Source: Actinomycetes bacterium (GTDB lineage: Bacteria > Actinomycetota > Thermoleophilia > UBA2241). Taken from it: 64,000 bases of DNA. Below, one piece after another: positions 7,416 to 24,355 of the stretch (positions are counted from its first letter, which is position 1; each line of letters begins with the position of its first letter). Made by a program: the position numbers and the translations under genes. The stretch covers positions 1,627-65,626 of the forward strand of contig JAKPOQ010000076.1 of assembly GCA_029547745.1 (NCBI GenBank), read 5' to 3'. The notes below the pieces were generated by a model. The model saw only the letters and a program-made list of their open reading frames with translations. It did no database searches and was not told where the DNA came from.

Positions 7416-7488
7416 TCGTTCCCGCCTGTCGGCGCGCAGGAGTCTCCATCACGGGCGCGTTGTCGCCCGTCGACGCGGCGGCTATAGT

Positions 7489-7710: not shown

Positions 7711-8180
7711 CCCCGGAGGTAGGCGGGCGATCGGGTAAGCCAGACGCAGGGGGAGAAAGCCGTCGTGCAGAGCGTCGGCAATCCGCGAGACCATGGTCTG
7801 TGGGACGGAGAGTGCGGGTCTACCGACGGGGAACGGTCGCTCCCACAGCATCACGGTCAGTCGTGACTGGATTCGTCAGCAGCAGCACTGCGTGACGGTG
7901 AGTTCAGGTATCTGCATGACGCCGCCAGGACGTGTCAGGCATATTGGTCGTCGTCCATCCATCCTGACGCCGGCAGACGATCCTCACGGCGTATACCGCC
8001 CACTCCAGCCACCTGTGAACGTGAGGGCCCGTCATCAGGACGGTGCGCTGTCCGTGTCTTCTTGGCCCATATGAACGCCGCCCGAGTCCGTGGCATACTG
8101 AGAGCAGCCAGTGTCATTCAGTGGAGGAGGGTCTTGCCTCTGAAGCGTTCACTCGCGGCCAGACGGCGATTGACACGATC

Positions 8181-10352
8181 ATGGGCGCCGTCAGCAATCC
8201 AGGCGAGAGTGGCGGTCACGTCGTCGTGAGGGCCGAAGTCAGGCGTAACCTCCTGCGTCCGTTAGGCGCGCGTGGGCGGCAGCAATCGTCGGGCCCCGTC
8301 TCTGACATGGTAGGAGCTGCGGCCGTCGCCTTGGCTCCTGACGAGCAGGTGGTCCTACTCGACGGCGACGGCGTCGTTCTGGCAGCGCCCAAGCACGGGC
8401 CGGCCGCGCAACTGGGTATCACCGTGGGTGCGGCACTGTGCGACGAGGTGGTCGGAGTGTCGCCTGTGCTTCAGAAGCTCCTCCTCGATGCGCATCACGA
8501 GGCAGCCTTCGTCGCTCGCGCCGCGATCAGAACGAAAGAGGGCGAAGGGCTGCTTCTGCGGTTACGGGCGCTTCCCGCAGAGGGTCACGGGCATCCGGTC
8601 GCAATCTCGGCCGAGGGCCGGTTCGACCCATGGGAGACGCCTGGCGAAGCGCTCCTCGGACTTCAGGACCATTTCGACATCGTCTCTCGCGTCATCGCCA
8701 TCACTTCGGGCGACTACACGCCCAAAGAGGCGACGGGCGAGATCCTCCGTACGATCAGCACGAGGTTGCGTATGGACGCAGCGGCGTTCTACTCGTTGCT
8801 CGATTATCCTTCGGCCAGGCTCGTCAGTGCGTTCGGCAGAACGAGACGGCGGGGGGTCCCTTACTCCGCGGTCGATTGTACCGACCCTCCAGTGGCGGCT
8901 CTGCTCGGCGGAGCCCCGGTCGTGATGATCCGCACGACCCGTACTGGACTGCCGGCCGCGTTGGCCGACGTGTGCACGCCCGACGCCATCGAGGTGTTCC
9001 TTCTCTCGGCACCCACGGCCGGTGGGATCAGCGGGTTCCTCGTCCTGAGTCGCGATGTCATTCAGCCGTTCGAAGCCTCTTCGCTGCACACCATGTGTCT
9101 TGCGGCGCGTCTGCTGGGACTCGTCACGGAACACGCTCAGCTCTCGTTGGAGTCCGAGCGCAGCTCTGTGATGCTCGAGACCGCCTACGCCGTCTCGCGA
9201 ACGATCTCGCGCAGTCTGGACCTCGAGCATACGTTCAAGGTGGTCGCGATGAACGCGACACGTCTGTTGCCGGGCATGCGCTGTGTGCTGTTCGAGACGA
9301 ACTCCGCGCCGGACGAGCTGGTCGCAGTGGCGGCGTCCCAGACCGCGGATGTCGACCTCAGGGGCCTGCGCCTGCGTCTCGACGGGCGCGCCGTGGAGCA
9401 GATGATGTCGTGCCGTCACTTCCAGGCCGAGTTGCTCGACATGATCTGGGGGGAGTCGATGCGACCTGAAGTGCGTCGTGCGGTCGAAGCGCGTACGGCG
9501 CTGGTCCTGCCCATGCTGGCCAACGAGGAGCTGATCGGAGCTCTCGTCCTTCTGTCGCCCAGACGGTTCCGGACGTTCTCCGATCGTGACCTGGAGCTGG
9601 CCGAGGAGCTCGCCGATCAGGCTGCCGCGGCCATCCACAACGCGCGGCTCTACAGCGACCTGGCAGCGAGCAGGCAGCATGTCCAGGCGCTTATCGGTCG
9701 GATGGCTCGCATTCGCGAGCACGAGCGACGCGAACTCGCAAGCATAGTCCACGACGACGTCATCCAGTCCGTGGCCGGGTCGGTGTACAAGCTTGAGGCC
9801 GTGCGTGACCAGCTGCCGACCGAGGCCCAGGAAGCTCTTTCCGATGCGATCACGGTGTTACAAGGGGCGGTGATGGAAGCCCGCAACGTGATCGCGGACC
9901 TGCGTCCGCCGGTTCTCGAGAACCTGGGGTTGTCGGTGGCGCTGCGCATGCTGGTCGACCGGATGGACACGCAGGGTCCTGCTCGCGTCGGTCTCGAGAT
10001 CAAGGATCTGCCCGATCTCGGGCCGGCAAAGGCTGCCTCTGTCTATCGCATCGTGCGCGAGGCGTTGGTGAACGCGCAGCGGCATGCGGATGCACGCCAC
10101 GTCTGGGTCGATCTGCGGTGCGCGAGTGACAGTGAGGGGGGTGTGTTACACGTGACGGTGCGCGATGACGGAAAGGGCCTGGAAGGTCAGACCGTCCGCG
10201 AGGGACACTATGGTGTGACGATGATGGAGGAGCAGGCGGCGCTCGTGGGAGGGAATCTGGATATCGTGTCACTCGACGGGCAGGGCCTCACCGTGCGCGC
10301 TGTCGTCCCGCTCGAGGAGGCGAGCGCGCTGACCGCAGAGGAAGGTAGGTGA
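8181..10352 (+). CDS. soluble sensor histidine kinase: N-terminal sensory region plus two GAF-like domains, HisKA_3 and HATPase_c
   Basis: H-box REHERRELASIVHDDVIQSV (HisKA_3 type). ATPase region REALVNAQRHA...VRDDGKGL...GVTMMEEQAALVGG. No predicted TM segment. Start uncertain: in-frame candidates at 8043, 8181 (ATG) and 8307 (ATG). Confidence 0.85.
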   Translation: MGAVSNPGESGGHVVVRAEVRRNLLRPLGARGRQQSSGPVSDMVGAAAVALAPDEQVVLLDGDGVVLAAPKHGPAAQLGITVGAALCDEVVGVSPVLQKLLLDAHHEAAFVARAAIRTKEGEGLLLRLRALPAEGHGHPVAISAEGRFDPWETPGEALLGLQDHFDIVSRVIAITSGDYTPKEATGEILRTISTRLRMDAAAFYSLLDYPSARLVSAFGRTRRRGVPYSAVDCTDPPVAALLGGAPVVMIRTTRTGLPAALADVCTPDAIEVFLLSAPTAGGISGFLVLSRDVIQPFEASSLHTMCLAARLLGLVTEHAQLSLESERSSVMLETAYAVSRTISRSLDLEHTFKVVAMNATRLLPGMRCVLFETNSAPDELVAVAASQTADVDLRGLRLRLDGRAVEQMMSCRHFQAELLDMIWGESMRPEVRRAVEARTALVLPMLANEELIGALVLLSPRRFRTFSDRDLELAEELADQAAAAIHNARLYSDLAASRQHVQALIGRMARIREHERRELASIVHDDVIQSVAGSVYKLEAVRDQLPTEAQEALSDAITVLQGAVMEARNVIADLRPPVLENLGLSVALRMLVDRMDTQGPARVGLEIKDLPDLGPAKAASVYRIVREALVNAQRHADARHVWVDLRCASDSEGGVLHVTVRDDGKGLEGQTVREGHYGVTMMEEQAALVGGNLDIVSLDGQGLTVRAVVPLEEASALTAEEGR

Positions 10353-10356
10353 GAGG

Positions 10357-10989
10357 GTGCCGCCTGTCCGTATTCTGATCGTCGACGATCATGCCGTCGT
10401 GCGCGAGGGTCTCTCGTCGATGCTGTCGCAGTACGTCGACTTCGAGGTCGTGGGCGAGGCCGCCTCTGGTGCCGATGCCGTCCGTCTTTCGGACGAGCTC
10501 AAGCCGGACTTGATGCTGCTCGATCTGCAGATGCCTGAGATGGACGGGCTCGAGGTGTTGAAACGCCTCGGGTCCAGCGGCCAAGAGAGCCCCCGCGTGG
10601 TCGTCCTCTCGATGCACGACGACGAGGAACTCGTGGCCAACGCCGTCCGCGCGGGCGCACACGGGTATGTGCTGAAGAGTGCGTCGCGAAACGATCTCGT
10701 CGCTGCCCTGCGCCACGTGGCTGCCGGCGGACAACGGTTCGACGAGGTCGTCGTGCGGGCTCTCCTCTCGGAGCAGCGAAAGGAGGATCACGCTGCCCTG
10801 CTCTCCGAACGGGAGGTCGAGATCCTCCGGCTGATCGCATCCGGTTGCAGTAACAAACAGGTCGCCGAGCGACTGTATATCAGCCTCAGCACAGTCAAGA
10901 CGCACCTCGACGACGTCTACCGCAAGCTGGGTGTCGCCGATCGCGCCCACGCGGTGGCCGTGGCGCTGCGTCTCGGGATCCTTGAATGA
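10357..10989 (+). CDS. NarL/LuxR-family response regulator
   Basis: VRILIVDDHAVVREGL...DLMLLDLQMPEMDG (receiver domain). LSEREVEILRLIASGCSNKQVAERLYISLSTVKTHL (LuxR helix-turn-helix). Confidence 0.92.
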   Translation: MPPVRILIVDDHAVVREGLSSMLSQYVDFEVVGEAASGADAVRLSDELKPDLMLLDLQMPEMDGLEVLKRLGSSGQESPRVVVLSMHDDEELVANAVRAGAHGYVLKSASRNDLVAALRHVAAGGQRFDEVVVRALLSEQRKEDHAALLSEREVEILRLIASGCSNKQVAERLYISLSTVKTHLDDVYRKLGVADRAHAVAVALRLGILE

Positions 10990-12593
10990 GCATCATGGCG
11001 GACGGGCGCGATCCCCTCGTCATCACGCTCAGACAGGAGTCCAGTGTGTCCCGTGAGTGGGGCGTTCTCGACACGCTCCTTTACAACCTGATGACCATGA
11101 ACTTCGCGGTGATGTTCACCGTGCCGTTCCTCGCCGCTGTAGCGCTGTACCCGCGCGGCGACCTGCCCGTGGCGATCCTCATTGCCGGTGTGCTCTGCTG
11201 TGCCGAGGCCGTCGTCTACGCTTTTCTCGCGTCCTCCGTGCCGAGGAGCGGCGGCGATTATTTCCTGCAGAAGCGCCTGGTGTCGCAGGCGATCGGGAAG
11301 GTGTTCGCCTTCACCGGCGTCGTGCTTGGCGGGGCGCTGTGGATGGCTATCGCGGGATGGTTCGCCGCCAATGTGGCCGTGGGCCCCCTCCTGACGGTCG
11401 TCGGGCGCCTCACGGGCCACGACGCCTTCCTCTCCTGCGCGGCCCTCGTTCGGTCGAGTCACGGTGTGTTCCTCCTGTCGCTGACGGTGGTCATATGGTC
11501 GGCGACTGTCAACATATGGGGGCTGCGCACCTATGCCATTCTGCAGCGGATCTCTTGGGCTGTAGGCGCAGGCGCACTCATCTTCCTCGCACTCCTTGTG
11601 GCACTGCTCGGCGCAGACAGGGTCGGGAGCGCCGATCTCTACACGGAGGCGCTGATGCGGGCGCGGGCGTTGGGTTTCGACCCCGGCGCGGGCTCCGGCG
11701 CCGCCATGGGCACCATGGCCCTGGTACCTGTCGCCGCCTTCTCGCTCATCTATCCGGCCTGGAGCGTGCAGCAGGTGGGAGAGGTCCGTCGGGCGAGCAG
11801 GCTACGCTCGCAGCTCGTGACCATGGTCCTGGCTGAAGCGCTCACGGCCGTGTTCTCGGCGGTCGTCGTGGCCCTCGTCCTTGCCAACGTCGATCGCGAC
11901 GGCCTGGCCGCTGGGGCATATCTCTTCCTCTTCGAGCGTTCCGCGATGCCTGATCCGAACGTGCCGTTCTACTGGTTCTTCGACGGCAGTCTCTGGCCGA
12001 GCGGCAGTGCAGTCCTGGCTCTCGCTGTCCTCTTCAACGCGTGGTTCTGGATGTGGGTCCCCGACATCACGCTGGCTGCCTCGCGCGTCATGCTCGCCAT
12101 GTCCTCCGACAGGTCACTGCCGGCTTGGCTCGGTGACCCTTGGGGTCGTCACAGGGCGCCGGCGAAGGCGATCGCCCTCTTCAGCGCCGTCTGCGTCGTG
12201 CCGGCGGCCCTCTATGCTTATACGCCGCTGTGGCGGCTCACGCTGTCGGTAACGCTGCTCAACGTACTGGCGTTTGCCGTGACATGTGCCGGTGGTGCCT
12301 GCGCGCCCTACACCAACAGGGAGTTCTACCGCGAGAGCACGGCCGCCCGTTTCGAGATCCTGAAGGTGCCGCTCATCACGTGGTGCGGCGGTGGGTTCTG
12401 TCTCTTCGCGGCGTTTCTCGTGTGGCGCTTCGCCGTCGACGCTGGTCTGGCGCTGGGTGCACCCCGATGGGCGCTGTTCGCTTTCGTCGCCGTCACTTAC
12501 GTGACCGCCTACCTCGTGCAAGTGCTCGTCACACGATTCGGTGGCTACCGCAAGGGACGGGGCGCCGAGGTCATCTACCGTCTGACTGACTGA
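10986..12593 (+). CDS. APC-superfamily permease (amino acid/polyamine/organocation type)
   Basis: About 12 hydrophobic segments and the SVPRSGGDYFL motif region typical of APC carriers. ATG overlaps the regulator stop (ATGA). Confidence 0.75.
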   Translation: MSIMADGRDPLVITLRQESSVSREWGVLDTLLYNLMTMNFAVMFTVPFLAAVALYPRGDLPVAILIAGVLCCAEAVVYAFLASSVPRSGGDYFLQKRLVSQAIGKVFAFTGVVLGGALWMAIAGWFAANVAVGPLLTVVGRLTGHDAFLSCAALVRSSHGVFLLSLTVVIWSATVNIWGLRTYAILQRISWAVGAGALIFLALLVALLGADRVGSADLYTEALMRARALGFDPGAGSGAAMGTMALVPVAAFSLIYPAWSVQQVGEVRRASRLRSQLVTMVLAEALTAVFSAVVVALVLANVDRDGLAAGAYLFLFERSAMPDPNVPFYWFFDGSLWPSGSAVLALAVLFNAWFWMWVPDITLAASRVMLAMSSDRSLPAWLGDPWGRHRAPAKAIALFSAVCVVPAALYAYTPLWRLTLSVTLLNVLAFAVTCAGGACAPYTNREFYRESTAARFEILKVPLITWCGGGFCLFAAFLVWRFAVDAGLALGAPRWALFAFVAVTYVTAYLVQVLVTRFGGYRKGRGAEVIYRLTD

Positions 12594-12643
12594 TCGCTCG
12601 CTACGGCGCAGCGACAGCAGCGCCAGTCACCAGTTCTCTGCCC

Positions 12644-12680
12644 GGCGAGCCGACCGGTCTACCGGCGGCTCGGCCGTTTG
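12644..12680 (+). terminator. hairpin followed by GTTTG, candidate intrinsic terminator after the permease gene
   Basis: ggcgagccgaccgg-tcta-ccggcggctcggcc followed by gtttg. Confidence 0.45.
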
Positions 12681-12844
12681 CGGTGGCGGTCAGCCATGAG
12701 GCTGGTCGCGTTCCATACCATGGCACCCTTACTGATGGCCTTATGACCGTGTCGCCTCGGGGTGGAGAGGCCTATCGTCATGCGGCATTCAGCGCTCGTG
12801 TGCAAGGGGCTTTCGGCTCCACGTGGCAAGGGGGGTGGAATCTC

Positions 12845-13066
12845 GTGAACGTCGAGTCACGATTCAGCGTGGACATTGCACGGCACCTGGAATCCGACAG
12901 CGACTTCGAGCGTGACCTGTACACCGAGGTCGTTCGCCGTGTCAGCTACGGCCGCCGCGCAGGGTCCGTCGTCAAGACGACCAAGTGGTACGACTGGCTC
13001 GCCCCCGCGATATCCGCCGCGACCATCGTCACTGTGTACTACTTGTACATCTTCCCACGATTCTAG
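12845..13066 (+). CDS. hypothetical small tail-anchored membrane protein (about 73 aa)
   Basis: GTG at 12845 preceded by GGGGGTGG. GC-rich third positions. Single C-terminal TM segment WYDWLAPAISAATIVTVYYLYIFPRF. The ORF-track version starts at 12683, immediately after the putative terminator. No family recognised. Confidence 0.4.
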   Translation: MNVESRFSVDIARHLESDSDFERDLYTEVVRRVSYGRRAGSVVKTTKWYDWLAPAISAATIVTVYYLYIFPRF

Positions 13067-13118
13067 AAGGGGGGTCTCATGGTCAGGGGGGGCTTCATGA
13101 GCGGAACGAGGGTGCCCG

Positions 13119-14705
13119 ATGGGCGACCCTGGTAACAGTTCCGGAGTACAGCAGGAGGCGGCGTTCGGCTTCATGCCGACGTTGAAGAAGGACCGTATCT
13201 TCGGATGGCTCGATTTCACGCTCGTCCAGGCAGGGTTTGGTATCGCTGCCTGGTGTTTCCTGGTCGGCGGTCTCACCGGCGTCACGGTGCAGGGAAAGTA
13301 CGCGATTTGGGTGATCCTGCTCGGGAACGCCGTCCCCGTGCTCATGTGTCTGCCCTTCGCTTTGCAGACGGCTCGTCTCGGTGTCGACACCTTCATCGCC
13401 AGCAACATGGCGCTGGGCTATCGCTTCTCACAGGTCTTCTTCGTCATCTTCGTGACCTTGAACCTGGGATGGATAGCGATCGCCAACTTCATGCTCGGGC
13501 AGGCTGCTGCCAAGCTCGCTGGTGTCGCCGGCATGCCGGAATTCCTGACGACAAGAACTCTGGGCGCGCCGATCTGGTCGATCCTCTTCATGTTCGTCGC
13601 CTTGTACATCACTTATCTGGGGCCGGGGGTGATCAAGAACATCGCCCGTGTCGGCGTGCCATGCATCATCGCGATCCTGGCGCTTCTCATCGGCATCGTA
13701 GTCTTCAAGTACGGGTTCGACACCGTGTGGGAATCCAGGCCGTCGGCTCCTTACACGACAGGCGATGGATCCATCGACTTCGGGCGCTCCGTGGTGACGG
13801 CGTTGGAATGGAACGTCGGGCTCGGGTTCTCATGGTTGGTGTACCTGGGGCAATGGTGTCGACTGGCGCGCAGTGAAGGGGCGGCGATCAATGGCTCTTA
13901 CCTTGGTCTGGGGCTGCTTCTCAACATCGCGGCGATCTTCGGCGCCTTCATCGCCCTCATTCTGGGAGACCTGAACCCGCCGAACTGGATGCTCCCGGCC
14001 GGCGGTCGCGTGGTGGGTGTCCTGGGGCTCGGACTCCTGGTGCTCGCCAACCTGTATGCGAGCTCGTATCTCATGTACGCACAGGCGCTCAGCATGAAGA
14101 CGCTGTCTCCGCGCATGAACTGGCGCACTTGCGTGCTGACATGTGTGCCCGCCGTCTTCCTCGTCGTGACCCCCGGGTTCTACGACAGCTATCAGCGTTT
14201 CCTCGTCATGATCGCCTATGTCATCGCGGTGTTCGGCGGGATCCTGGTCTCCGACTGGCTCTTCGTCCATCGCAGGAGGGGAGAGCTGGGGGCTCTCTAC
14301 GATCGCGAGAATCCGCAGTACCGGTACCTACGCGGATGGAACCCTGCCGCCATCGTGACGTTCGTCGCCGCGACGGCGTTCTACTGGTTCATGTACAACC
14401 CCGTCTCCGACACGCCGGGTCCACTCATGGTCCGGCTCGGCCTCGGGGCGGGCATCCCTTCGTTCCTGTTCGCGGCCGTTCTGTACACGACGCTGGCGAA
14501 GACCGCGTTCCGCCGCCTGTACGCGGCGGACCAGGAATGGCAGGCGCTGCGCGACCGCGGCCAGATCGCCGTCATGGTCCCCGACCAGATCGCCGTCGAC
14601 CTGTCCGGGGTATGCGCCGAGGACTGGCAGGACAGCGAGGATGACGGGTGTCCGGAAGGGCTGTGCACGCTCGAGGCTCTCGATGATCAGATGCCGGCCG
14701 GGTGA
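13119..14705 (+). CDS. NCS1-family (nucleobase/hydantoin/allantoin/vitamin:cation symporter-1 type) permease
   Basis: N-terminus KKDRIFGWLDFTLVQAGFGIAAWCFLVGGLTG and 12 hydrophobic segments, as in CodB/Mhp1-like carriers. Unusual about 65-aa acidic, Cys-containing C-terminal tail. Confidence 0.75.
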   Translation: MGDPGNSSGVQQEAAFGFMPTLKKDRIFGWLDFTLVQAGFGIAAWCFLVGGLTGVTVQGKYAIWVILLGNAVPVLMCLPFALQTARLGVDTFIASNMALGYRFSQVFFVIFVTLNLGWIAIANFMLGQAAAKLAGVAGMPEFLTTRTLGAPIWSILFMFVALYITYLGPGVIKNIARVGVPCIIAILALLIGIVVFKYGFDTVWESRPSAPYTTGDGSIDFGRSVVTALEWNVGLGFSWLVYLGQWCRLARSEGAAINGSYLGLGLLLNIAAIFGAFIALILGDLNPPNWMLPAGGRVVGVLGLGLLVLANLYASSYLMYAQALSMKTLSPRMNWRTCVLTCVPAVFLVVTPGFYDSYQRFLVMIAYVIAVFGGILVSDWLFVHRRRGELGALYDRENPQYRYLRGWNPAAIVTFVAATAFYWFMYNPVSDTPGPLMVRLGLGAGIPSFLFAAVLYTTLAKTAFRRLYAADQEWQALRDRGQIAVMVPDQIAVDLSGVCAEDWQDSEDDGCPEGLCTLEALDDQMPAG

Positions 14706-14762
14706 CAGCAGGTCGACAGACGATGCCGTGTGTCATCAGAAGCGAAAGGAGTCGATGAGTCC

Positions 14763-16289
14763 ATGACAGCTGCAACATCAACCTACGGCGCGGTCACCGA
14801 CGAGGTCGTCGCCGAGCTCAAGAGGCTGCTGGGCGACGAGAACGTCCTGACCGACATGCATGAGCGGGCGATGCGTGCCTTCAGCTGTGCCCCGGCGCCG
14901 CTCCATCGTTGGAAGGACCAAACGCCCGATGTCGTCGTGCTGCCGGGCAGCACCGAGGACGTCGTGGGCGTCCTCAAGCTCGCCAACGAGAGGCGTATCC
15001 CGGTGACGCCCCGCGCAGGCGCCTCCGGCCTTGCCGATGGCGCCATGCCGCTGCGCAAGGGCATCTGTGTCGACATCAAGCGCATGAACGAGATCTTCGA
15101 GATCGACGAAGACAACATGTGCGCCACCGTCGGCACCGGGATCAACATGCTCAAGCTGAACGAAGTGCTCGAGCCGCTCGGCAAGATATACCCGGACGAC
15201 CTTGCCGGGTACGCGAACGCCATGCTCGGCGGGCGGATCGGCTGCGGAGGCTGGACGCTCATCGGCGGAAAGTTCGGGCACATCCCCGACACGGTGATAA
15301 GCATGGAGTGCGTGCTCCCCGACGGCCAGGTGATCTGGGTCGGCGGCGGCGGCACCAAGAAGATCCGCAAGAGTTCCTCGGGCTACCGACTCAAGGACCT
15401 CTTCATGCAGCACCAAGGCACACTGTGCATCGCCACCAAGGCGGTCATCGAACTCTACCCCAAGTCTGAGGTGGAGTTCGCCGGCTACTTCGCGTTCGAC
15501 AACTGGGACGATGCCTACGCCGCTCTCTACGACGTCACTACGAGAGGGTTCGGCAACCTGTCGTCGGCGATGATCTTCGACGACAAGAAGATCGACTTCC
15601 TGCGCCGTGATGACGAGGCCTTCATCCCGTTGCCCAAGGAGGTGAAGTTCGTCGACCTCTTCACGATGTACGGTCTCAAGTGCGAGGTCGAGCCGGCCGT
15701 GAGGGAAGGCTTCCGAATCATGAAGAAGCACGGCGGCCGTTACCTCGGTCCCGAGCAGGGAGAAGGCGACTGGGCGTCACGGCACGACCGATACCATCTC
15801 TCGTACCACGGACGCACACCCGACGGCCAGGCGACGCTCATGTCGTGGCACTGCGAGGACACGGCCGCCTATCACACGGCGCTGCCCATCCTCCGCGAGC
15901 AGTACCACGAGATCGTCGGCCGCTACATGACAGAGTACCCGGGCGTGTTCGACGACTGGGGGATCTTCATCTATACGAGCAACCCGTTCAAGGGTTGGGG
16001 CGACTACCTGATCGAGATTGACGTCGGTATCGCCGAGTTGCAGTACAACGATGAGACTTGGGACGCCTGGATCCGCATGAAGCGCGAGATCGCTGAGGCA
16101 GCGGTGGCCCAGGAGTGCTCGGTCTCGATCTGCCACGGGTCGTGCCGCGAGGGCGACGACGACGTCGCCATGCACAAGGAGATGAAGAACGGCACGTTCG
16201 ACATCATGAAGAAGATCAAGAGGATGATCGACCCGAACAACATCATGAACCCCGGTAAGTACTGCCTTGACGAAGCCTACGACGACTGA
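14763..16289 (+). CDS. FAD-linked oxidase/dehydrogenase, GlcD / D-2-hydroxyacid dehydrogenase-like
   Basis: FAD_binding_4-type VVLPGSTEDVVGVLKLANERRIPVTPRAGASGLADGAMP. C-terminal MKKIKRMIDPNNIMNPGK typical of FAD-oxidase_C. GAAAGGAG Shine-Dalgarno upstream of the ATG at 14763. Confidence 0.85.
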   Translation: MTAATSTYGAVTDEVVAELKRLLGDENVLTDMHERAMRAFSCAPAPLHRWKDQTPDVVVLPGSTEDVVGVLKLANERRIPVTPRAGASGLADGAMPLRKGICVDIKRMNEIFEIDEDNMCATVGTGINMLKLNEVLEPLGKIYPDDLAGYANAMLGGRIGCGGWTLIGGKFGHIPDTVISMECVLPDGQVIWVGGGGTKKIRKSSSGYRLKDLFMQHQGTLCIATKAVIELYPKSEVEFAGYFAFDNWDDAYAALYDVTTRGFGNLSSAMIFDDKKIDFLRRDDEAFIPLPKEVKFVDLFTMYGLKCEVEPAVREGFRIMKKHGGRYLGPEQGEGDWASRHDRYHLSYHGRTPDGQATLMSWHCEDTAAYHTALPILREQYHEIVGRYMTEYPGVFDDWGIFIYTSNPFKGWGDYLIEIDVGIAELQYNDETWDAWIRMKREIAEAAVAQECSVSICHGSCREGDDDVAMHKEMKNGTFDIMKKIKRMIDPNNIMNPGKYCLDEAYDD

Positions 16290-16329
16290 ACAGCGTTCGG
16301 CTCGGAAGTAGAAAGGAAGGTCCTGACCT

Positions 16330-17571
16330 ATGCCATATCAACTCAGCAAGAAGGACTTCTACGCTGAGCCCCTGTCGAAGGCCAAGCCCATCGACGAGGA
16401 GTTCGTCAAAGAGGCGTACCTGGTCTTTGCTTGCCGGCACAAGTTCTGTCGCGACATCTGCCCGAACTTCGACATCACCCGTAACGAGGCTCATTCCTCA
16501 TACGGCTTCCACACATCGATCCTCGCAGTCAGCCGCGGCGTCGGCCAACTTGACGAGCTCATCGACAACTTCACCTACTGCCTTGAGTGTGGCGCCTGTG
16601 AACTGCGTTGCCCGAACACCTGCATGGGCGGCGACTTTTATCGGCGTTCAACGACGACCGTCGACCTTGTACGCAAGATCCGTCGCGACCACATGGCTGA
16701 CGGCGGTGAGATCAAGAACTGGAGTGCCGTCAAGGAGTATCTTGACGAGCACCGCGGCTTCGTCGCTACACAGGGTGATCTGGTCACTAAGTGGGCTGAG
16801 GGCATCAAAGTGGCCGGAGACCTGAAGACGGCGCTCTTCGTCGACTTCTTCACGGCCACCCAGGGCACCGAGGTGCCTCGCCTGGCCGCTCAGGTACTTA
16901 ACAAGCTCGGCGTCAAGTACGGCATCTACACGACGCCCGGGGTCACCGCCCCGGAGCTTCTCAGCGAGAACGACGACGAGTGGAAGAAGTACGCCGGCGA
17001 GAACGTCGCGAACTTCAAGAAGCTCGGCGTCCAGACGCTGGTCGTCATGAACCCCCACGATTACGCGCTGCTCATCCGTGAGTACCCGAAGTGGTTCGAC
17101 ATGGACGGCATCGAGACGGTCTTCATCACCGACTTCATCCTCAAGAAGATGAAGGAGAAGGGCGTGACGCCGCCCAAGGCCATCGAGGGCAAGTTCGCCT
17201 ACCACGACCCGTGCACGTTGAACACGCTGGTCGTCGAGGCAGAATCGCCGCGCGACTTGGTGGGCATGGTGCCTGGCGCCGAGATCGTCGACGTGCCGCC
17301 GGGCAACCAGTGGCGCTACTGCTGTGGCAACGGCAACGGCCCGTATCGAAAGCTCCACGAGGACATCGCCTACCGCATCGGCCAGAAGCGCCTGCGTGCG
17401 GCCGCCGACTTGGGCGTCGACACGATCCTTGTCGCCTGCCCGCACTGCAAGGACCAGTTCACCGATGTCAAGCAGAAGGCTGGTCTGCCGGTGGAGCCGG
17501 TGCACGTGATCGAGCTGGTCGCAAAGGCCATGGGTATCGAGTGGGAGACCACCTCGCCGACCATTGGTTGA
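16330..17571 (+). CDS. Fe-S oxidoreductase, GlcF/GlpC/HdrD-like (2x[4Fe-4S] motif plus CCG domains)
   Basis: CRHKFCRDICP and CLECGACELRCP ferredoxin motifs. Second CCG domain intact (HDPCTL...YCCGNGNG...ACPHCKDQF). First CCG-domain position has lost all Cys (FVDFFTA...TTPGVTAPE...MNPHDY). Confidence 0.8.
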   Translation: MPYQLSKKDFYAEPLSKAKPIDEEFVKEAYLVFACRHKFCRDICPNFDITRNEAHSSYGFHTSILAVSRGVGQLDELIDNFTYCLECGACELRCPNTCMGGDFYRRSTTTVDLVRKIRRDHMADGGEIKNWSAVKEYLDEHRGFVATQGDLVTKWAEGIKVAGDLKTALFVDFFTATQGTEVPRLAAQVLNKLGVKYGIYTTPGVTAPELLSENDDEWKKYAGENVANFKKLGVQTLVVMNPHDYALLIREYPKWFDMDGIETVFITDFILKKMKEKGVTPPKAIEGKFAYHDPCTLNTLVVEAESPRDLVGMVPGAEIVDVPPGNQWRYCCGNGNGPYRKLHEDIAYRIGQKRLRAAADLGVDTILVACPHCKDQFTDVKQKAGLPVEPVHVIELVAKAMGIEWETTSPTIG

Positions 17572-17599
17572 CCTCAGGGGGTCAGAGAGGAGCGTCAGC

Positions 17600-17803
17600 A
17601 TGGCTGAAGAGATCATCTACAAGTACGGGCACATCGAGATCCTGCCCACACGGATGCAGGAGTACATCAAGCAGCAGGAGATGAACGAGGCCGAGCGCGA
17701 GCGCATCGTGAAGGCCCGGAACATCCATCTCGACTGGTACCACCGGCACTTCGCGTACGAGGTCCTCAAGCCACCTGCCGAAGAATGGGAGCCCAAGGCG
17801 TGA
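17600..17803 (+). CDS. hypothetical 67-aa soluble protein (no family recognised)
   Basis: ATG at 17600 preceded by GAGAGGAG. Sequence MAEEIIYKYGHIEILPTRMQEYIKQQEMNEAERERIVKARNIHLDWYHRHFAYEVLKPPAEEWEPKA. Followed directly by a perfect hairpin. Confidence 0.5.
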   Translation: MAEEIIYKYGHIEILPTRMQEYIKQQEMNEAERERIVKARNIHLDWYHRHFAYEVLKPPAEEWEPKA

Positions 17804-17824
17804 GGTAGGCCGGATCCGGCACCC

Positions 17825-17858
17825 GGTTGGCGGGGCCGCGAAAGCGGCCCCGCCAACC
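17825..17858 (+). terminator. perfect 15-bp stem / GAAA tetraloop hairpin between the 67-aa ORF and etfB
   Basis: ggttggcggggccgc-gaaa-gcggccccgccaacc. Preceded by the palindrome gccggatccggc (17809-17820). No U-tract. Confidence 0.5.
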
Positions 17859-17914
17859 CACTGCTCGTGGTCAGCCGTTCGATCGATCCACTTACTGCAC
17901 TTACTGGGAGCACC

Positions 17915-18697
17915 ATGAGAATCATCGTCTGCGCCAAGCACGTGGTGGACTCCACGGAGATCCGTTGGGACGACGAGCACGATGAAGTCGTCTTGCGCAA
18001 CTTGCCCACCAAGATCAGTGACTACGACCGTAATGCGCTCGAGGCGGCGGTGGTTCTGAAAGAGTCCGAGCCGTCCGTCGATCTTGACGTCGTCATGATC
18101 GGCGGTGAGGCCGCCCTGAAGACGCTCAAAGAGGCCGTTGCCATGGGCGCTGACAGGGGTCATCTCGTCGAGGGCGGGTGGGACGATCCGTTCGATCCTC
18201 TGCGCAGCGCACGGGTGCTCGCCAAGGCCATCGACCAGCTCGAGGAGCCTGACCTCGTCATGTGCGGCCTCGTGTCGGAGGACGGTTACAACGGGGTGAC
18301 CGGAGCGGCGCTGGCGCAACTCCTTGACGTCCCGTACCTGGCCCCCGTCGTCGGCCTGAAGGTCGACGAGGGATCCCTGGAAGCAGTGCTCGACGTCGGT
18401 TCGGCGTTGCGTACGGTCAAGGTCGCGATGCCCTGTGTAGTCGCGGTGGACTCGGCGATGAACGTGCCGCGTCTCCCGACGGTGTTACAGGTCATGAAAG
18501 TGAAAGGCGACCGCGTCGCGAAGATGAGCCTCGACAGCTTGTCGCTGTCAGCTGACGCGGCCGAACTGGCCCATGCTGGCGAGCTGGTCGGGAGTGAATC
18601 GGGCGCTGTCGAGCGCAGACGAGTCCTTATCGAGGAGGCGCCCGACGAAGCGGCCGCCAGACTCGTCGAGTACCTGCGGCAGGAAGGGGTGCTGTGA
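17915..18697 (+). CDS. etfB: electron transfer flavoprotein, beta subunit
   Basis: MRIIVCAKHVVDSTEIRWD...DYDRNALEAAVVLKE...VMCG. Confidence 0.88.
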   Translation: MRIIVCAKHVVDSTEIRWDDEHDEVVLRNLPTKISDYDRNALEAAVVLKESEPSVDLDVVMIGGEAALKTLKEAVAMGADRGHLVEGGWDDPFDPLRSARVLAKAIDQLEEPDLVMCGLVSEDGYNGVTGAALAQLLDVPYLAPVVGLKVDEGSLEAVLDVGSALRTVKVAMPCVVAVDSAMNVPRLPTVLQVMKVKGDRVAKMSLDSLSLSADAAELAHAGELVGSESGAVERRRVLIEEAPDEAAARLVEYLRQEGVL

Positions 18698-19671
18698 TGG
18701 CCGGCCGTTTCGTCGTGAGTTCCGCGTCCGTCACTGACCTCCAGAGGATGGCGGAACTGGCACGGCGCCTGGCGGGCGCGGACGGGCGGGTCGACGCCGT
18801 CGCGCTCGCCGGTGACGCCGGCGTGCTCGCTCCGGAGGACGGCACCCTGGCCGATACCGCTGGGGGTCTGGCCGGACTGGCCGACACCCTGCTCGTCTAC
18901 GAAGGCGCCGGTGAGTATCTGCGCGGCGACATGTGGGCGGCGGCGCTGGTCGACGCCGTCGGCCGGGACGGTGAGTGCGTCCTCGTCGCCGATGCCCCGG
19001 CGGCGCGCGAGGCCGTGGCGCGGACCGCGGTGTCGTGTCGTGCGTCCGTGGCGAGCATGTGCGAGGACCTGCAGCGGGCCGAGGGCGGCGGATTCGTGGC
19101 CAGGCGCTCGATCTACGGCGGGGTGGCGGACGGTCTCATCGCCCTCGTTTCGACGCCAGCCGTGTGTCTGTTCGCCGCCGGCAAGTTCGAGGGCGCGCCG
19201 TCGGGCGAGTCTGTGCCCGTGGAACAGCGTACCCTGGGGGCGCCCGCCTACGAGGTGACGCACGTCGGCGACGAGCCGGTGGTAAGAACGGTGGACCTTG
19301 CCGGAGCGTCCGTCGTGGTGTCGGTCGGCCGCGGTTTCGTCAAACGGGAGGACCTCGACCTCGTCGATCCTCTGGTCAGTGCCCTGGGCGCGGAACTCGG
19401 CTGCTCGCGACCGATCGCTGAGGATTTCAAGTGGCTGCCCAAGGAGCGGCTTGTCGGGCTCACCGGAGAGTCCGTCACGGCCGAGCTCTACTTGGCCCTG
19501 GGGATCTCCGGCCAGGTGCAGCACCTGACAGGAGTCAAGGGAGCGCGTGTGGTCGCTGCCGTGAACAACGACGCCAAGGCTCCCATCACGCGCAACGCCG
19601 ACTATGTGGTCGTCGGTGACTTGTACAAGGTTGTGCCCGAGCTCGTGAACGCGCTCCGCAGCCGATCGTGA
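18694..19671 (+). CDS. etfA: electron transfer flavoprotein, alpha subunit
   Basis: VVSVGRG...LGCSRPIAEDFKWLPKERLVGLTGESVTAELYLALGISGQVQHLTGVKGARVVAAVNNDAKAPI. Start overlaps the etfB stop. Confidence 0.88.
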   Translation: MMAGRFVVSSASVTDLQRMAELARRLAGADGRVDAVALAGDAGVLAPEDGTLADTAGGLAGLADTLLVYEGAGEYLRGDMWAAALVDAVGRDGECVLVADAPAAREAVARTAVSCRASVASMCEDLQRAEGGGFVARRSIYGGVADGLIALVSTPAVCLFAAGKFEGAPSGESVPVEQRTLGAPAYEVTHVGDEPVVRTVDLAGASVVVSVGRGFVKREDLDLVDPLVSALGAELGCSRPIAEDFKWLPKERLVGLTGESVTAELYLALGISGQVQHLTGVKGARVVAAVNNDAKAPITRNADYVVVGDLYKVVPELVNALRSRS

Positions 19672-21776
19672 CGGGGTGGACGGTGGACATCGAGTACACG
19701 AGGGAATACCTGCCGTTCCTGCCACACACGGCCACGCTCGTCGTGATGTACGCCTGTGTGGTCGTCGTTGCCGTCCTGTTCGTGTGGGGGTTCTGGCGGA
19801 GGTACCGCGCCTACACGAAGGGCGGCCGAAGCCTCTGGCAAGCGGTGAACGGCAAGGTACTGCCGTGGCGGCCACGACTCTGGCGGGTCGTCCGCGACGT
19901 CATCCTGCAGACCAAGGTGCGCGAACGCCATCTGCCTGCTGTGATGCACATGGCGATCTTCTACGGGATGGTCCTGCTCTTCATCGGGACTTGCGTGGTC
20001 CTGTTCTATGAGGACGTGCTCGTCTGGTTCGGCGACTTCGAGTTCGGCGGCCTGCCCTACGTCGTCTTCGAGTCCGTGCTCGACGTCGCAGCTCTTGCGC
20101 TCATCATCGGAGTGGTGATCGCGCTATGGCGGCGGCTCGTGATGCGTCCTGCCTATCTGTCGCCGAAGCGGTCGACCATGCTGGTCCTCTGGGGGCTGCT
20201 GTTCATGGGCGTATCCGGGCTGGGACTCGAGGCTTACCGTATCGCGGCGCAGCCGAGCGAATGGGCCCAGGCCGCGTTCGTGGGCTGGACGCTGTCACAC
20301 CTGCTCGAGGGCTGGGCGGGCCAGGAAGGGACACCGGTGGCCGTATACCAGACCCTGTGGTGGCTGCACGCCGGCGGCGCCTTCGCGCTCATCGTCGGCG
20401 CCGCTTGGACAGGATTCGCGCACATCTTCGTCTTGCCTGCCAATGTCGCCGCGCACGATCCCGAACGCGCGAAGACCAAGCTGAGGACACCCTTCAACCT
20501 GATCGCCGCGATGGAGTCGGAGGAGGACGTGGAGCTCGTTGCCGGCACCGCCACTACCGGCGACATCGCCCCGCCCGACAGACTTGCGGCCGATGCCTGC
20601 GTAGCCTGCGGCCGGTGTCATGACGAGTGCCCGGCCGTCGCCAGCGGCCGGCAGCTATCGCCTCGGGACCTCGTGCAGGAGATACAGGCGACACTCGGCA
20701 CCAATCTGGGGAGCGCGCCGAGCGACCGACCGGCTGCCGAGTTCGAGGATGCGGCGTGGTCGTGCACGAACTGCTATGCATGTGAGCAGGTCTGCCCGGC
20801 GCGCATCCGCCACGTCGACCTTGTCCTCGACTTCCGGCGCGCACTCGTCGACCAGAACCGTCTCGATGAGCAGAAGCTCGGCGTGCTCCAGGCTCTCGAC
20901 CGGAACATGAACCCGTACAAACTGCCGTCGCACGAGCGGGCGGCGTGGATCACCGAACTGCCCTACGCGGATGAGGTCATCTACGGGGCGGCAGAGCTGA
21001 TTGAGCCGCCGGAGTACCTGTATTGGATCGGCTGTGCGGCGGCGTACGACGAGCGTACCGCTCAAGTCGCACGGGCGACCATGGACCTGCTGCGCGCAGC
21101 CGGCGTCCATTTCATCACGCTGGGACCGGCCGAGCCGTGCTGCGGAGAGCCGGCGAAGCGGCTCGGTGAAGAGGGCCGGTTCCAGATGATCGCCATGCAG
21201 GCCATCGAGATGATCAAGGAGACAGGGGCCGCAAAGATCGTCACCCACTGCCCGCACGGTCTCAACGTCTTCCTCCACGAGTACCCGGCGCTGGGCTTCT
21301 CGATCCCGGCGGTGCATCACGCCGAGCTCCTCGCTGACCTCGTCTCGGCAGGTCGGCTCAAGCTCGGTGTTGGCATCGGGGGCAAGGTCGTCTATCACGA
21401 GCCCTGCAACCTGGCTCGCGCCGGCCATCCGGCGACCGCCGCCCTGGCGCTCTTGGACGGGTCGACCGTGCTTCCCGAGAAGGCCGGTGTACACACCTTC
21501 TGTTGCGGCGGCGGTGGCGGCAACAGTTTCTATCAGGTCGAGCAGGAAGAGCGACGCATCAGCGCTCTCCGCTACGAGCAGGTCGTCGCTACCGGGGCGG
21601 ACAGGCTTGCTGTAAGTTGCCCCTTCTGCTTGACGATGCTGCGCGACGCGGCGGCGGGACACGGGGACGGAGCCCTTCAGGTGATGGACGTGGCGGAGGT
21701 GTTGCATGCCCGGCTCGACGAAGCTCCCACGACTACCGCATCAGCGGCGGTGATCGGAGCGCGGGTGAACGAGTAG
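19668..21776 (+). CDS. membrane Fe-S oxidoreductase: N-terminal NarI/DsrM-like multi-TM (putative b-haem) domain fused to an HdrD/DsrK-like 2x[4Fe-4S] plus two CCG domains. Putative ETF:quinone oxidoreductase.
   Basis: Five to six N-terminal TM helices with His pairs (HLPAVMHMAIFYG; WWLHAGGAFALIVGAAWTGFAHIF). CVACGRCHDECP and CTNCYACEQVCP. CCG domains WIGCAAAYD...EPCCGEP...THCPHG and HEPCNLA...FCCGGGGG...SCPFCLTML. GTGA overlap with etfA. Confidence 0.8.
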   Translation: MTGWTVDIEYTREYLPFLPHTATLVVMYACVVVVAVLFVWGFWRRYRAYTKGGRSLWQAVNGKVLPWRPRLWRVVRDVILQTKVRERHLPAVMHMAIFYGMVLLFIGTCVVLFYEDVLVWFGDFEFGGLPYVVFESVLDVAALALIIGVVIALWRRLVMRPAYLSPKRSTMLVLWGLLFMGVSGLGLEAYRIAAQPSEWAQAAFVGWTLSHLLEGWAGQEGTPVAVYQTLWWLHAGGAFALIVGAAWTGFAHIFVLPANVAAHDPERAKTKLRTPFNLIAAMESEEDVELVAGTATTGDIAPPDRLAADACVACGRCHDECPAVASGRQLSPRDLVQEIQATLGTNLGSAPSDRPAAEFEDAAWSCTNCYACEQVCPARIRHVDLVLDFRRALVDQNRLDEQKLGVLQALDRNMNPYKLPSHERAAWITELPYADEVIYGAAELIEPPEYLYWIGCAAAYDERTAQVARATMDLLRAAGVHFITLGPAEPCCGEPAKRLGEEGRFQMIAMQAIEMIKETGAAKIVTHCPHGLNVFLHEYPALGFSIPAVHHAELLADLVSAGRLKLGVGIGGKVVYHEPCNLARAGHPATAALALLDGSTVLPEKAGVHTFCCGGGGGNSFYQVEQEERRISALRYEQVVATGADRLAVSCPFCLTMLRDAAAGHGDGALQVMDVAEVLHARLDEAPTTTASAAVIGARVNE

Positions 21777-21874
21777 GAGCAAAGGTCTGGCGTGTCGACC
21801 CCCACCGGGATCCGGCATGGGGGAAGGGTAGTGGTGCGGCCGGGCACCGCGTCGCCGCACAAGGGAGGATACAC

Positions 21875-22315
21875 ATGGGTCTCAAGATGGTCGTGGGCCT
21901 TGACAGTTCGAAGTACGCGGAGCAAGCGTTCCAGCGGGCGCTCGAGTTGGCCCGAAAGACGGGCGGCTCGCTGGTCGTCGTGTGTGGTCGCCGGCCCAAG
22001 TCGATATCGTACGTGGCCGCTTTCCAGCCTGCGTTGACGATTGCCAGCGCCATGAAGGACGCCGAGGAAAGGGCTGCAGAGGCGCTCAAGAAGGCCGCTG
22101 ACGAGGCTGCCGCGGCTGGGGTGGACGTCAAGACCGAGGCGGTGTACGAGGATCCTGCCGAGTCCTTGATCAATGTGGCCGAGCGCGAGATGGCCGATGC
22201 CATAGTCGTGGGCGCCAAGGGAGAAGGCGGACTGTCGGACCGTCTCTTCGGGTCGACGGTCACCGACCTGTTGCAGCGCAGTACGATCCCGGTCCTCGTG
22301 GTTCCCGCGAGGTAG
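21875..22315 (+). CDS. universal stress protein (UspA family)
   Basis: MGLKMVVGLDSSKYAEQAFQRALELA...IVVGAKGEGGLSDRLFGSTVTDLLQRSTIPVLVVP. AAGGGAGGA Shine-Dalgarno upstream of the ATG at 21875. Confidence 0.85.
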   Translation: MGLKMVVGLDSSKYAEQAFQRALELARKTGGSLVVVCGRRPKSISYVAAFQPALTIASAMKDAEERAAEALKKAADEAAAAGVDVKTEAVYEDPAESLINVAEREMADAIVVGAKGEGGLSDRLFGSTVTDLLQRSTIPVLVVPAR

Positions 22316-22475
22316 TCGGGCCACGGTCGGGCATGAGTGGGTGGACGCGAAAGGCGCGAAGGGTGATACGGGCACCGAGGCGACGCGGCGTGAGCGTCGG
22401 TAGGCGACGTGCAGCCTCGGCCAGTGCCTGTGTCACCGCCGGCGACGGAAGAGCTGGTCTGTGGTCTTGGCGACG

Positions 22476-22505
22476 TTGCGGGCAGGGGACTGAAACAGGT
22501 AGAGT
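22476..22505 (+). promoter_or_regulatory. candidate sigma-70/SigA-type promoter for the atp operon
   Basis: TTGCGG-N18-TAGAGT, about 235 nt upstream of atpI. By eye only. Confidence 0.25.
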
Positions 22506-22741
22506 GTGACGGTTCCGGGCACAGGTGGCGGCTGAGGCGAGCGGGATCAGAGATCCCGTTCGCTCGCAAGGCCAGGTCAAGACTCGTGACGGCGTCAAGG
22601 GTCGCAGCGCTGGCGGCAGAAGCGTGTGCGTCGCTCAGTGAGTCTTGGCCTCATGTCGCGCCGTGTTCTCGGGGGACCCCATGTGACCAGGAGTGGGTCA
22701 CGTCTGCGATGAGGGAGTGAGATCAGGGTCGGAATGCGTCG

Positions 22742-24021: not shown

Positions 24022-24081
24022 GTGCTCGCTGCACGACACCACGACCCCGCACCGCGCGTGCATCGTCAAGGAGGACACTGA

Positions 24082-24312: not shown

Positions 24313-24355
24313 CGGTCGTGGCGGGTGGGACGCTCCTGAGGGAACGGAGACAACG

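Follow-up and report, generated by a model that had tools for sequence, protein, structure and literature searches.

An insertion between atpZ and atpI brings a flavoprotein-linked dehydrogenase cassette and a second candidate atp promoter to the ATP synthase locus of an uncultured Thermoleophilia actinobacterium

How do twelve genes for sensing, transport and redox chemistry come to stand between atpZ and atpI, two small genes that adjoin one another at the head of the ATP synthase operon in related genomes? The question is raised by a 64,000-nt stretch of DNA (GenBank assembly GCA_029547745.1, contig JAKPOQ010000076.1, positions 1,627 to 65,626; hereafter the window, numbered from its first letter) from an uncultured, soil-type actinobacterium placed in the Thermoleophilia by a scan with its wecA-like protein, one genome per species. 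A preliminary description made from the letters of the window had drawn attention to a block of twelve genes between an atpZ-like gene and atpI, comprising a two-component system, two permeases, a redox module and a universal stress protein (USP). Both the number of these plus-strand genes and their content are borne out by open reading frame calling guided by G+C content at third codon positions (GC3) and by Pfam and NCBIfam scans, supplemented by public gene calls (Table 1). The comparisons described here confirm that the block is a real insertion, and we consider it likely that it is a recently acquired accessory cassette that provides a nutrient-to-respiration route, delivered on a donor fragment which included an atp promoter and which replaced 82 bp at the atpZ-atpI junction.

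The names of the two genes flanking the block call for some care, since atpI has no Pfam match and the atpZ-like protein falls below the PF09527 cut-off. Their position, size, transmembrane (TM) content and orthology across 16 loci nevertheless fit the accessory genes found upstream of atpB, and the AtpZ orthologues that adjoin atpI in relatives are 50-79% identical to the window protein. The preliminary description had likened the locus to that of mycobacteria; the comparison holds loosely, the host being an actinobacterium of the class Thermoleophilia.

The evidence that carries the finding is the empty site. Three contigs recovered through their AtpI homologues lack the block. One of these, L114 (JGI 3300026554), is conspecific and matches window positions 22840-33167 (10,328 bp) at 99.71% identity. 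It opens with 75 bp from the 3' end of atpZ (window 7634-7708), after which come a TGA stop codon, a 22-nt spacer and atpI, whose product begins MNRQTIPP. The other two, L121 and L122, come from a sister species in which the AtpI N-terminus reads MSRQTIAP; they are 91% identical to the window at the nucleotide level on both sides of the block, and they join window positions 7217-7708 straight to 22847/22859 onward. Among the 13 closest loci of the wecA-like scan (59-84% identical in that protein), 12 (L002-L013) have wecA, atpZ, atpI and atpB contiguous. The claim that the block splits atpZ from atpI is thus upheld by the neighbours of these genes in relatives. Because a strain of the same species is without the block, the insertion is polymorphic within the species.

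Alignment with the empty sites also fixes the breakpoints. The left one lies at 7708|7709, within the atpZ stop codon, which has changed from TGA to TAG, and the right one at about 22847|22848, near codon 17 of atpI, so that some 15,139 bp now stand in place of 82 bp of the ancestral atpZ-atpI junction. The block had been taken to extend from the end of atpZ to the start of atpI; the insert holds the same twelve genes, and its true limits, 7709 to about 22847, lie inside the atpZ stop codon and inside atpI. To the right of the junction the mismatches between L114 and the window are spread evenly, and no extended donor tract is visible there. The long non-coding spacers said to bound the block are present as well, at 7711-8120 and 22316-22741/22798 rather than at 7711-8180 and 22316-22741. 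Neither spacer resembles any other locus that we retrieved except the conspecific contigs.

Could the arrangement be a chimera of assembly or binning? The source is uncultured, and strain heterogeneity does break assemblies at this locus, L114 itself beginning inside atpZ. Both junctions, however, recur in public data, on more than 30 contigs assembled independently. The right junction (EtfD-USP-spacer-atpI-atpB) is present on 13 public contigs from JGI, NCBI and Logan assemblies, and the left junction (wecA-atpZ-spacer-histidine kinase) on contigs from NCBI, ENA and Logan assemblies that are among the 18 public contigs encoding exactly the response regulator of the window. These contigs, assembled from different samples, match the window at 99.5-100% identity, and we give the chimera next to no weight.

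An insertion that is polymorphic in presence and foreign in composition might also be a classical mobile element, of the integrative or the composite-transposon type, with the atp locus as its target, and a DDE transposase does stand beside the module in one unrelated locus (L093). Against this, Pfam scans match no integrase or transposase in the block, where the twelve genes and three spacers leave no coding room for one; no tRNA gene is found at the block, the only one in the window lying at 56725; and repeat searches detect neither flanking direct repeats, inverted or terminal repeats nor a target-site duplication at its ends. The right junction, moreover, falls within a homologous gene. 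The block is a non-classical genomic island, as the preliminary description had held, and we see only the slenderest chance that a classical element was responsible.

The block differs in composition from its surroundings, with a bulk GC of 0.646 compared with 0.719 in the left flank and 0.706 in the right. Over 11 block genes GC3 averages 0.824, versus 0.889 over 39 other genes of the window (Mann-Whitney p=1.6e-5), and the difference holds against the atp genes alone (p=0.0012). The foreign composition proposed earlier is therefore real; the spot counts first offered for it (27/60 versus 47/60 G+C) are extremes of what is a modest shift. Part of the deficit in total GC comes from amino-acid composition, GlcD and GlcF having low GC at first and second codon positions in every genome examined. 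As a control, the same cassette has a GC3 of 0.92-0.96 in L001, L095 and L096, where it equals or exceeds that of the core genes, against 0.82 for the cassette and 0.90 for core genes in the window genome; the GC3 deficit is specific to the latter. Diversity within the species points the same way. Nucleotide differences from the window among conspecific contigs amount to 0.084% in the insert versus 0.386% in the flanks, a 4.6-fold reduction, and the insert is the less diverse part in 9 of 9 contigs that cover both, with the qualification that the contigs are non-independent samples, which makes the Fisher p-value for this contrast no more than indicative. Taken together with the conspecific empty site, the low diversity and the foreign GC3 point to one recent acquisition that remains polymorphic.

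These observations bear on the reverse history, in which the cassette is ancestral at the window position and was lost by deletion from L114, L121 and L122. Deletion decay of the cassette is seen elsewhere (L101), and the cassette is old within the clade and patchy in its distribution, both of which would suit such a history. The empty site, however, keeps the TGA stop codon, the short spacer and the M(S/N)RQTI N-terminus of AtpI as relatives have them, and since these features are common to the sister species and 12 distant relatives, deletion could not have recreated them. The cassette is also foreign in GC3 in the window genome only, it is less diverse than its flanks, and every other lineage has it upstream of atpZ, never downstream. 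Ancestral presence followed by loss thus seems to us very improbable.

We considered how the fragment might have entered. The right junction falls just ahead of a highly conserved stretch of atpI that encodes GRPVWAAALG. The insert encodes an AtpI N-terminus, ..RRRPVWMAPVVLG.., that is similar to those of AtpI in other lineages (..RRQAVAPLVLG..) and differs from those of the conspecific protein (P0122/L114) and of the sister species. By this comparison atpI appears to be a hybrid, with its first 17-35 codons from the donor and the rest resident. The comparison indicates that the donor fragment comprised the cassette, the USP gene, an atp promoter with its leader and the 5' end of atpI, and that it replaced the 82 bp from the atpZ stop codon to about codon 17 of atpI. 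The right crossover would have been anchored by homology in the GRPVW-coding stretch, and the left junction may have been illegitimate or may have formed in the last conserved codons of atpZ. Such an event would resemble the homology-anchored flexible genomic islands, in which a strain-variable segment without mobility genes occupies a conserved core locus, with one junction in a gene shared by donor and recipient and with foreign composition and low diversity. Unlike typical flexible islands, the anchor here is the 5' end of a gene of the ATP synthase operon and the mechanism is read from the junctions; the insert also duplicates the promoter of the operon, which is left split yet equipped with a promoter.

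That promoter deserves separate consideration. In 16 of 16 relatives, alignment reveals a conserved motif upstream of atpZ, TTG(C/T)NG followed after 17-18 nt by TA(T/G/A)A(G/C/A)T. A two-block position weight matrix (PWM) trained on the relatives and run over both strands of the window returns two outstanding matches, one inside the insert (P2, starting at 22476, score 30.3) and one directly upstream of atpZ (P1, starting at 7460, score 29.1), whereas the next independent site scores 12.8 and the maxima in 20 Markov-2 random sequences of 64 kb range from 9.5 to 19. P1 is also picked up by a generic sigma-70 scan. A candidate atp promoter just downstream of the USP gene had already been proposed, and P2 (22476-22505) answers to it; that two copies bracket the block adds to the earlier account. 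Both sites have -35 and -10 hexamers of sigma-70 type at a spacing of 17-18 nt and are predicted to be promoters. P1 is of the same type as the promoter of L121 and L122, and P2 matches the cassette-bearing loci L099 and L129 in hexamers and spacing. Since the two are alike at the functional positions only, they are not a duplication created by the insertion. An nhmmer profile of promoter plus atpZ retrieves the P2 site only at E=0.76, a weak match, so the claim for P2 rests on the promoter-only PWM.

Between P2 and atpI lies a leader of 230-290 nt, a length that would suit a decayed atpZ. A pseudogene was tried there and rejected: local alignments to nine atpZ genes score no higher than shuffled sequences do, and an AtpZ hidden Markov model finds no match in the three forward reading frames of the leader. 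The folding of the leader as a whole (22506-22798) is not significant, and neither it nor the spacers have an Rfam match to a riboswitch or other known RNA. The left spacer (7711-8120) has no significant structure and no canonical terminator, and canonical terminators in the spacers are not enriched over shuffles. The right spacer does contain a long stable hairpin (22362-22437), 47 nt past the USP stop codon and 38 nt ahead of the -35 box of P2. Five of 200 shuffles fold as well, and the hairpin has no U-tract; it is a candidate insulator or terminator. We suggest that atpZ would stay on the resident P1, while the structural genes of ATP synthase would now be served by the imported P2. The full-scoring P2 and the stable hairpin that precedes it argue that these genes keep an autonomous transcription.

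Two further observations concern the start of atpZ and a second hairpin. The -10 box of P1 ends one base before the annotated GTG start of atpZ (window 7483-7491), as it does in most relatives, and about 17 residues at the N-terminus of the protein are poorly conserved; either the true start lies further downstream or the transcript is unusual. Within the cassette, a hairpin at 17825-17858, between the gene for a 67-aa protein and etfB, could serve as an attenuator inside the operon, as a site of processing or as a stabiliser.

The preliminary description had held it unusual that such a module should be embedded at an atp locus. Scanning metagenomes with the EtfD-like protein and looking up USP homologues shows otherwise: in L001, L095, L096, L099, L123-L127 and L129 the cassette stands immediately ahead of the atp operon. 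In L095 and L096 the order is kinase, regulator, APC permease, GlcD through EtfD, then atpZ-atpI-atpB-E-F-H-A; L001 has wecA, a PAS-LuxR regulator, GlcD through EtfD, then atpZ and atpI; L099 has EtfD-atpZ-atpI-atpB. USP orthologues (64-76% identity) follow EtfD in L123-L129, the order being EtfD-USP-atpZ in L123-L127 and EtfD-USP-promoter in L129. At the other atp-adjacent loci the cassette stands upstream of the atp promoter and atpZ, its normal place in other Thermoleophilia being the interval from wecA to that promoter; in the window it stands downstream of both. The question whether relatives carry the same genes at the same position thus has a divided answer, in that the cassette adjoins atp elsewhere, but upstream of atpZ rather than between atpZ and atpI. 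It is the atp locus that is the usual neighbourhood of the cassette, and this was probably the context in the donor too. The habitual adjacency is probably why the cassette landed at the atp locus.

The cassette is not confined to that neighbourhood, occurring also in unrelated contexts (L093, L094 and L128). Its redox core, GlcD-GlcF-small protein-EtfB-EtfA-EtfD (ETF, electron-transfer flavoprotein), is found in distant organisms too, where the NCS1 permease and its small companion go with it. In L081 and L082 (37% GC) the cassette adjoins a sigma-54 regulator and aldehyde oxidoreductases; L089 (61% GC) has the complete left arm of histidine kinase, response regulator, APC permease, small protein and NCS1 permease. 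The cassette is co-linear in L089, L095 and L096, where the kinase has co-linear orthologues, and partly so in L081, L082 and L092; the NCS1 permease is linked to the dehydrogenase genes in L081, L089 and L092. Neighbour-joining trees of atp genes and other core genes intersperse cassette-bearing with cassette-free genomes, and the tree of the cassette is about as deep as the atp tree, from which it follows that the cassette is old in the clade, has been repeatedly gained and lost, and is a new arrival in the window species. The nearest copies are 67-89% identical at the protein level (GlcD 86-89%, EtfD 80%, USP 76%). L001 was considered as a sister genome sharing one and the same insertion and was rejected, since core-gene trees separate the cassette-bearing genomes and its cassette lies on the other side of atpZ.

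Several individual loci are of interest in their own right. In L093 (Ga0265296_1011059, 2981-6036) the EtfA-EtfD end is followed by sdhC, a DDE transposase gene on the opposite strand and sdhA, which puts the module beside a respiratory complex with a mobility gene nearby. In L101 (Ga0194126_10041525, 3385-4399), otherwise a locus like L096, wecA is followed by an N-terminal piece of the kinase joined directly to the C-terminal ~125 residues of EtfD; the piece matches residues 91-299 of the kinase in L096 at 93% identity, and the fusion is an apparent scar of an internal deletion of about 9 kb. A gene for an ICMT/PEMT-like membrane methyltransferase, absent from the window, stands between the NCS1 permease and GlcD in L081/L082 and L089-L092, and three aldehyde:ferredoxin oxidoreductase genes lie downstream of the cassette in L081 and L082. 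L009 (CAVOWE010000014.1) has two copies of atpI-atpB-atpE (337-1816 and 4126-5655), the extra one upstream of deaminase-wecA-atpZ-atpI-atpB, which may be a real duplication or a misassembly.

The recurrence of the cassette beside atp genes has implications for considering whether the two are functionally coupled, a possibility already raised in the preliminary description, either by read-through past the USP gene into atpI-atpC or by P1 driving the cassette. All the genes lie on the same strand, neither spacer has a canonical U-tract terminator above chance, P1 and atpZ now point into the cassette, and five lineages or more have the cassette next to the atp operon, as L093 has it next to sdh genes. 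Read-through is unnecessary, however, given a full-scoring atp promoter in the insert with a stable hairpin ahead of it; all other lineages hold the cassette upstream of the atp promoter and so outside the operon; and vertical descent with homology-anchored transfer explains the linkage equally well, the cassette occurring in unrelated contexts (L094 and L128) besides. Coupling of this kind finds no support in these comparisons and seems to us rather unlikely. We regard as unlikely too, and still more doubtful, the fuller proposal that the adjacency is adaptive, with P1 driving atpZ and the cassette and P2 driving ATP synthase as one co-regulated unit, and with the dehydrogenase possibly a new confurcating enzyme. 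If it were true, an inducible feeder of menaquinone, made up of a dehydrogenase, an ETF and EtfD, would form one bioenergetic unit with ATP synthase, and GlcD, GlcF, the 67-aa protein and EtfBA would together form a multi-subunit dehydrogenase of a kind not described before, perhaps one that confurcates electrons, acting on a substrate that the NCS1 permease brings in.

Returning to the reading of the block as a recently acquired accessory cassette, we asked what route its genes would provide. We suggest that control of the cassette lies with a cytoplasmic GAF-domain kinase and a regulator of LuxR type, that the APC permease and the NCS1 permease, the latter with the 73-aa single-TM protein as its partner, would import the substrate, and that a flavin/iron-sulfur dehydrogenase of GlcD/GlcF type would oxidise it. 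Electrons would then pass from the dehydrogenase to a dedicated EtfBA and on through an EtfD-type membrane oxidoreductase to menaquinone.

The dehydrogenase belongs, by similarity, to the D-2-hydroxyacid dehydrogenase branch of the VAO superfamily. More than 1000 homologues of the GlcD-like protein were found, and its best relatives in the PDB are 3pm9, LctD (7qh2_C) and mouse LDHD. The substrate is most likely a D-2-hydroxy acid or a similar compound. The GlcF-like protein gives partial matches to GlpC, GlcF, LdhH and TfrB and aligns to the CCG region of EtfD (9ojn). The glycolate oxidase GlcDEF and the D-2-hydroxyglutarate dehydrogenase YdiJ of E. coli offer a parallel, since both also combine an FAD_binding_4/FAD-oxidase_C subunit with a CCG iron-sulfur protein (YdiJ, a partial match, E=8e-20). 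Unlike GlcDEF, the window cassette has no GlcE gene and does have an ETF and EtfD. Identity with glycolate oxidase GlcDEF was rejected, as GlcE is missing and the equivalog scores are not reached (GlcD, TIGR00387, E=5.5e-48, 163.8 bits against a cut-off of 567.9; GlcF, 38.7 bits against 333). Every cassette copy examined has the 67-aa protein between GlcF and EtfB, without a Pfam or NCBIfam match, and the 73-aa protein has counterparts of 86 aa (L089) and 67 aa (L081/L082) placed upstream of the NCS1 permease. Both small proteins, the single-TM one and the soluble one, recur in cassettes from different phyla and fall into no assigned family.

The EtfD-like protein has an N-terminal TM/heme-b domain that is QmoC-like, with 5-6 hydrophobic segments in residues 15-258, followed by two 4Fe-4S motifs and two CCG domains. 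Both histidines that line up with His78 and His241 of 9ojn are retained, although the N-terminal alignment is weak (i-Evalue 0.003). Both cubane motifs, CVACGRCHDECP and CTNCYACEQVCP, retain all eight cysteines, and 16 of 17 cluster ligands are conserved, including all of those of the non-cubane D2 cluster; there is an extra cysteine in the first CCG motif (CTG to CCG). The adjacency of etfBA and the overlapping stop and start codons suggest that this protein would take electrons from the ETF and reduce menaquinone. EtfBA itself is a standard two-subunit ETF with partial NCBIfam matches of FixA/FixB and YdiQ/YdiR type. The best PDB relative of EtfB is the bifurcating CarD (E=1.4e-25), with human and Paracoccus ETFs close behind, and that of EtfA is the Paracoccus ETF; the PDB rankings favour neither a bifurcating nor a non-bifurcating ETF.

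One precedent is EtfBA-EtfD of M. smegmatis (9ojn, PMC13083937), in which etfB and etfA likewise precede a membrane protein with heme b, two cubane motifs and two CCG domains. Unlike that protein, the one in the window has no disordered C-terminal tail of ~265 residues, and unlike the mycobacterial pathway the cassette encodes a GlcD/GlcF-type upstream donor instead of acyl-CoA dehydrogenases. A second precedent, Ldh-EtfAB of A. woodii (LctBCD, 7qh2), also pairs a GlcD-family dehydrogenase with a dedicated EtfB and EtfA; in the PDB, LctD ranks second among the relatives of the GlcD-like protein (E=1.6e-32), and LctB and LctC are among the ETF matches. In contrast to LctC (418 aa), however, EtfA of the window lacks the N-terminal ferredoxin domain and aligns only to LctC 161-392, and the cassette has a GlcF-like protein and a membrane EtfD that LctBCD does not. 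The presence of these two favours a reduction of quinone over NAD+/ferredoxin confurcation. Sulfate reducers use substrate-specific ETFs, together with membrane iron-sulfur oxidoreductases, to carry the electrons of a specific cytoplasmic dehydrogenase to menaquinone (PMC5109826). Modules of the Desulfococcus multivorans type resemble the cassette in setting EtfAB and a CCG-type membrane iron-sulfur oxidoreductase beside one catabolic dehydrogenase, and delivery of electrons to menaquinone is proposed for these modules of sulfate reducers and syntrophs (PMC5109826). Unlike them, the window module has a GlcD/GlcF pair with a 67-aa partner, lies in an actinobacterial host, and is accompanied by two permeases, a two-component system and a USP.

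On the regulatory side, the kinase has no TM segments, and the set of GAF, HisKA_3 and HATPase kinase, LuxR-type regulator and USP is alike in architecture to DosS/DosT-DosR. A DosS-like heme sensor was considered and rejected, the sole DevS match being to the ATPase domain (3zxo, E=0.0016), with no similarity to GAF-A.

Several points weigh against the recently acquired respiratory cassette that we favour. The GlcD- and GlcF-like proteins and both permeases fall far below every curated equivalog cut-off, and what a GlcF-like protein would do beside EtfBA and EtfD is not evident. In EtfD, three of the four D1 cysteines are conserved, the equivalent of Cys584 of M. smegmatis being glycine. The activity of P1 and P2 is judged from their conservation. 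No atpZ lies between P2 and atpI, unlike in every other cassette-bearing locus seen; a donor arrangement without atpZ makes the integration route partly conjectural. Finally, none of the retrieved cassette copies is the donor sequence.

Table 1. Coordinates of the block and of the adjoining atp features in the window.
Feature	Position	Strand	Basis or remarks
P1, candidate resident atp promoter	7460-7488	+	TTGTCG-17 nt-TATAGT, directly 5' of atpZ
atpZ-like gene, 73 aa, two TM helices, intact	7489-7710	+	PF09527 24.2 bits, cut-off 26.6
Inserted segment, ~15,139 bp	7709-22847	+	Comparison with empty site
Left non-coding spacer of insert	7711-8120	.	Similar only to conspecific contigs
Soluble sensor histidine kinase, 743 aa	8121-10352	+	GAF, HisKA_3, HATPase_c (Pfam, NCBIfam); start per public gene calls
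NarL/LuxR-type response regulator	10357-10989	+	Response_reg and GerE
APC-superfamily permease, 535 aa	10986-12593	+	AA_permease_2 E=5.8e-12; multiple TM segments
73-aa protein, single C-terminal TM helix	12845-13066	+	Conspecific gene calls; hydropathy
NCS1-family permease, 528 aa	13119-14705	+	Transp_cyt_pur E=3.8e-13; TIGR00800, CytX weak
GlcD-like FAD-linked dehydrogenase, 508 aa	14763-16289	+	FAD_binding_4 and FAD-oxidase_C
GlcF-like soluble iron-sulfur/CCG protein, 413 aa	16330-17571	+	CCG and Fer4
67-aa soluble protein	17600-17803	+	Conserved between GlcF and EtfB
Perfect 15-bp GC-rich hairpin, GAAA loop	17825-17858	+	Repeat search; folding z=-4.8
etfB	17915-18697	+	ETF and ETF_alpha domains in the etfB-etfA pair
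etfA, 324 aa	18697-19671	+	ETF and ETF_alpha domains
EtfD-type membrane iron-sulfur oxidoreductase, 702 aa	19668-21776	+	9ojn_A E=1.4e-62
USP, 146 aa, final cassette gene	21875-22315	+	Usp E=6e-29
Long stable hairpin after USP stop codon	22362-22437	+	Folding of 22310-22455, z=-2.5
P2, candidate imported atp promoter inside insert	22476-22505	+	TTGCGG-18 nt-TAGAGT; PWM 30.3
Leader, P2 to atpI	22506-22798	+	No detectable atpZ remnant
atpI, start GTG 22742 or ATG 22799	22742-23167	+	Apparent donor-derived 5' end, resident remainder
Resident atpB-E-F-H-A-G-D, atpC next	23164-29308	+	Pfam, public gene calls; 99.7% identical to L114

The block is embedded in housekeeping DNA of high GC content (the window as a whole is about 70% GC). 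To its left, on the plus strand, lie hisA/hisF, tsaC (Sua5/YrdC), rpiB, a deaminase gene, the gene for the GT4-family wecA-like transferase (6363-7415) and the atpZ-like gene; to its right, also on the plus strand, atpI, atpB, E, F, H, A, G, D and C are followed by murA and then by cell-envelope genes. The remaining genes of the window outside the block are housekeeping genes. Short replaced segments (28463-28543 and 30764-30875) set two conspecific contigs, L108 and L109, apart from the window. The gene calls are broken there, in atpD for L109 and in murA for both, which may reflect strain variation or assembly error.

The event described here is of a known kind, and the cassette involved is an uncharacterised ETF/EtfD-linked dehydrogenase set, one that is widely distributed in organisms of 37% to 72% GC. 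As a case of its kind the locus would be a clean natural example of an essential, conserved operon split by a recent cassette with a promoter retained, for which exact breakpoints, an empty-site allele from the same population and related arrangements of donor type are all available. It would show how accessory modules for respiration can pass from one lineage to another when conserved core genes serve as anchors for recombination, the anchor here being atpI, with the atp promoter moving along with the cassette. The polymorphism in presence and absence offers a natural experiment on the effect of the cassette on atp expression. In its predicted function, the cassette would extend the recently solved mycobacterial EtfD system beyond beta-oxidation.

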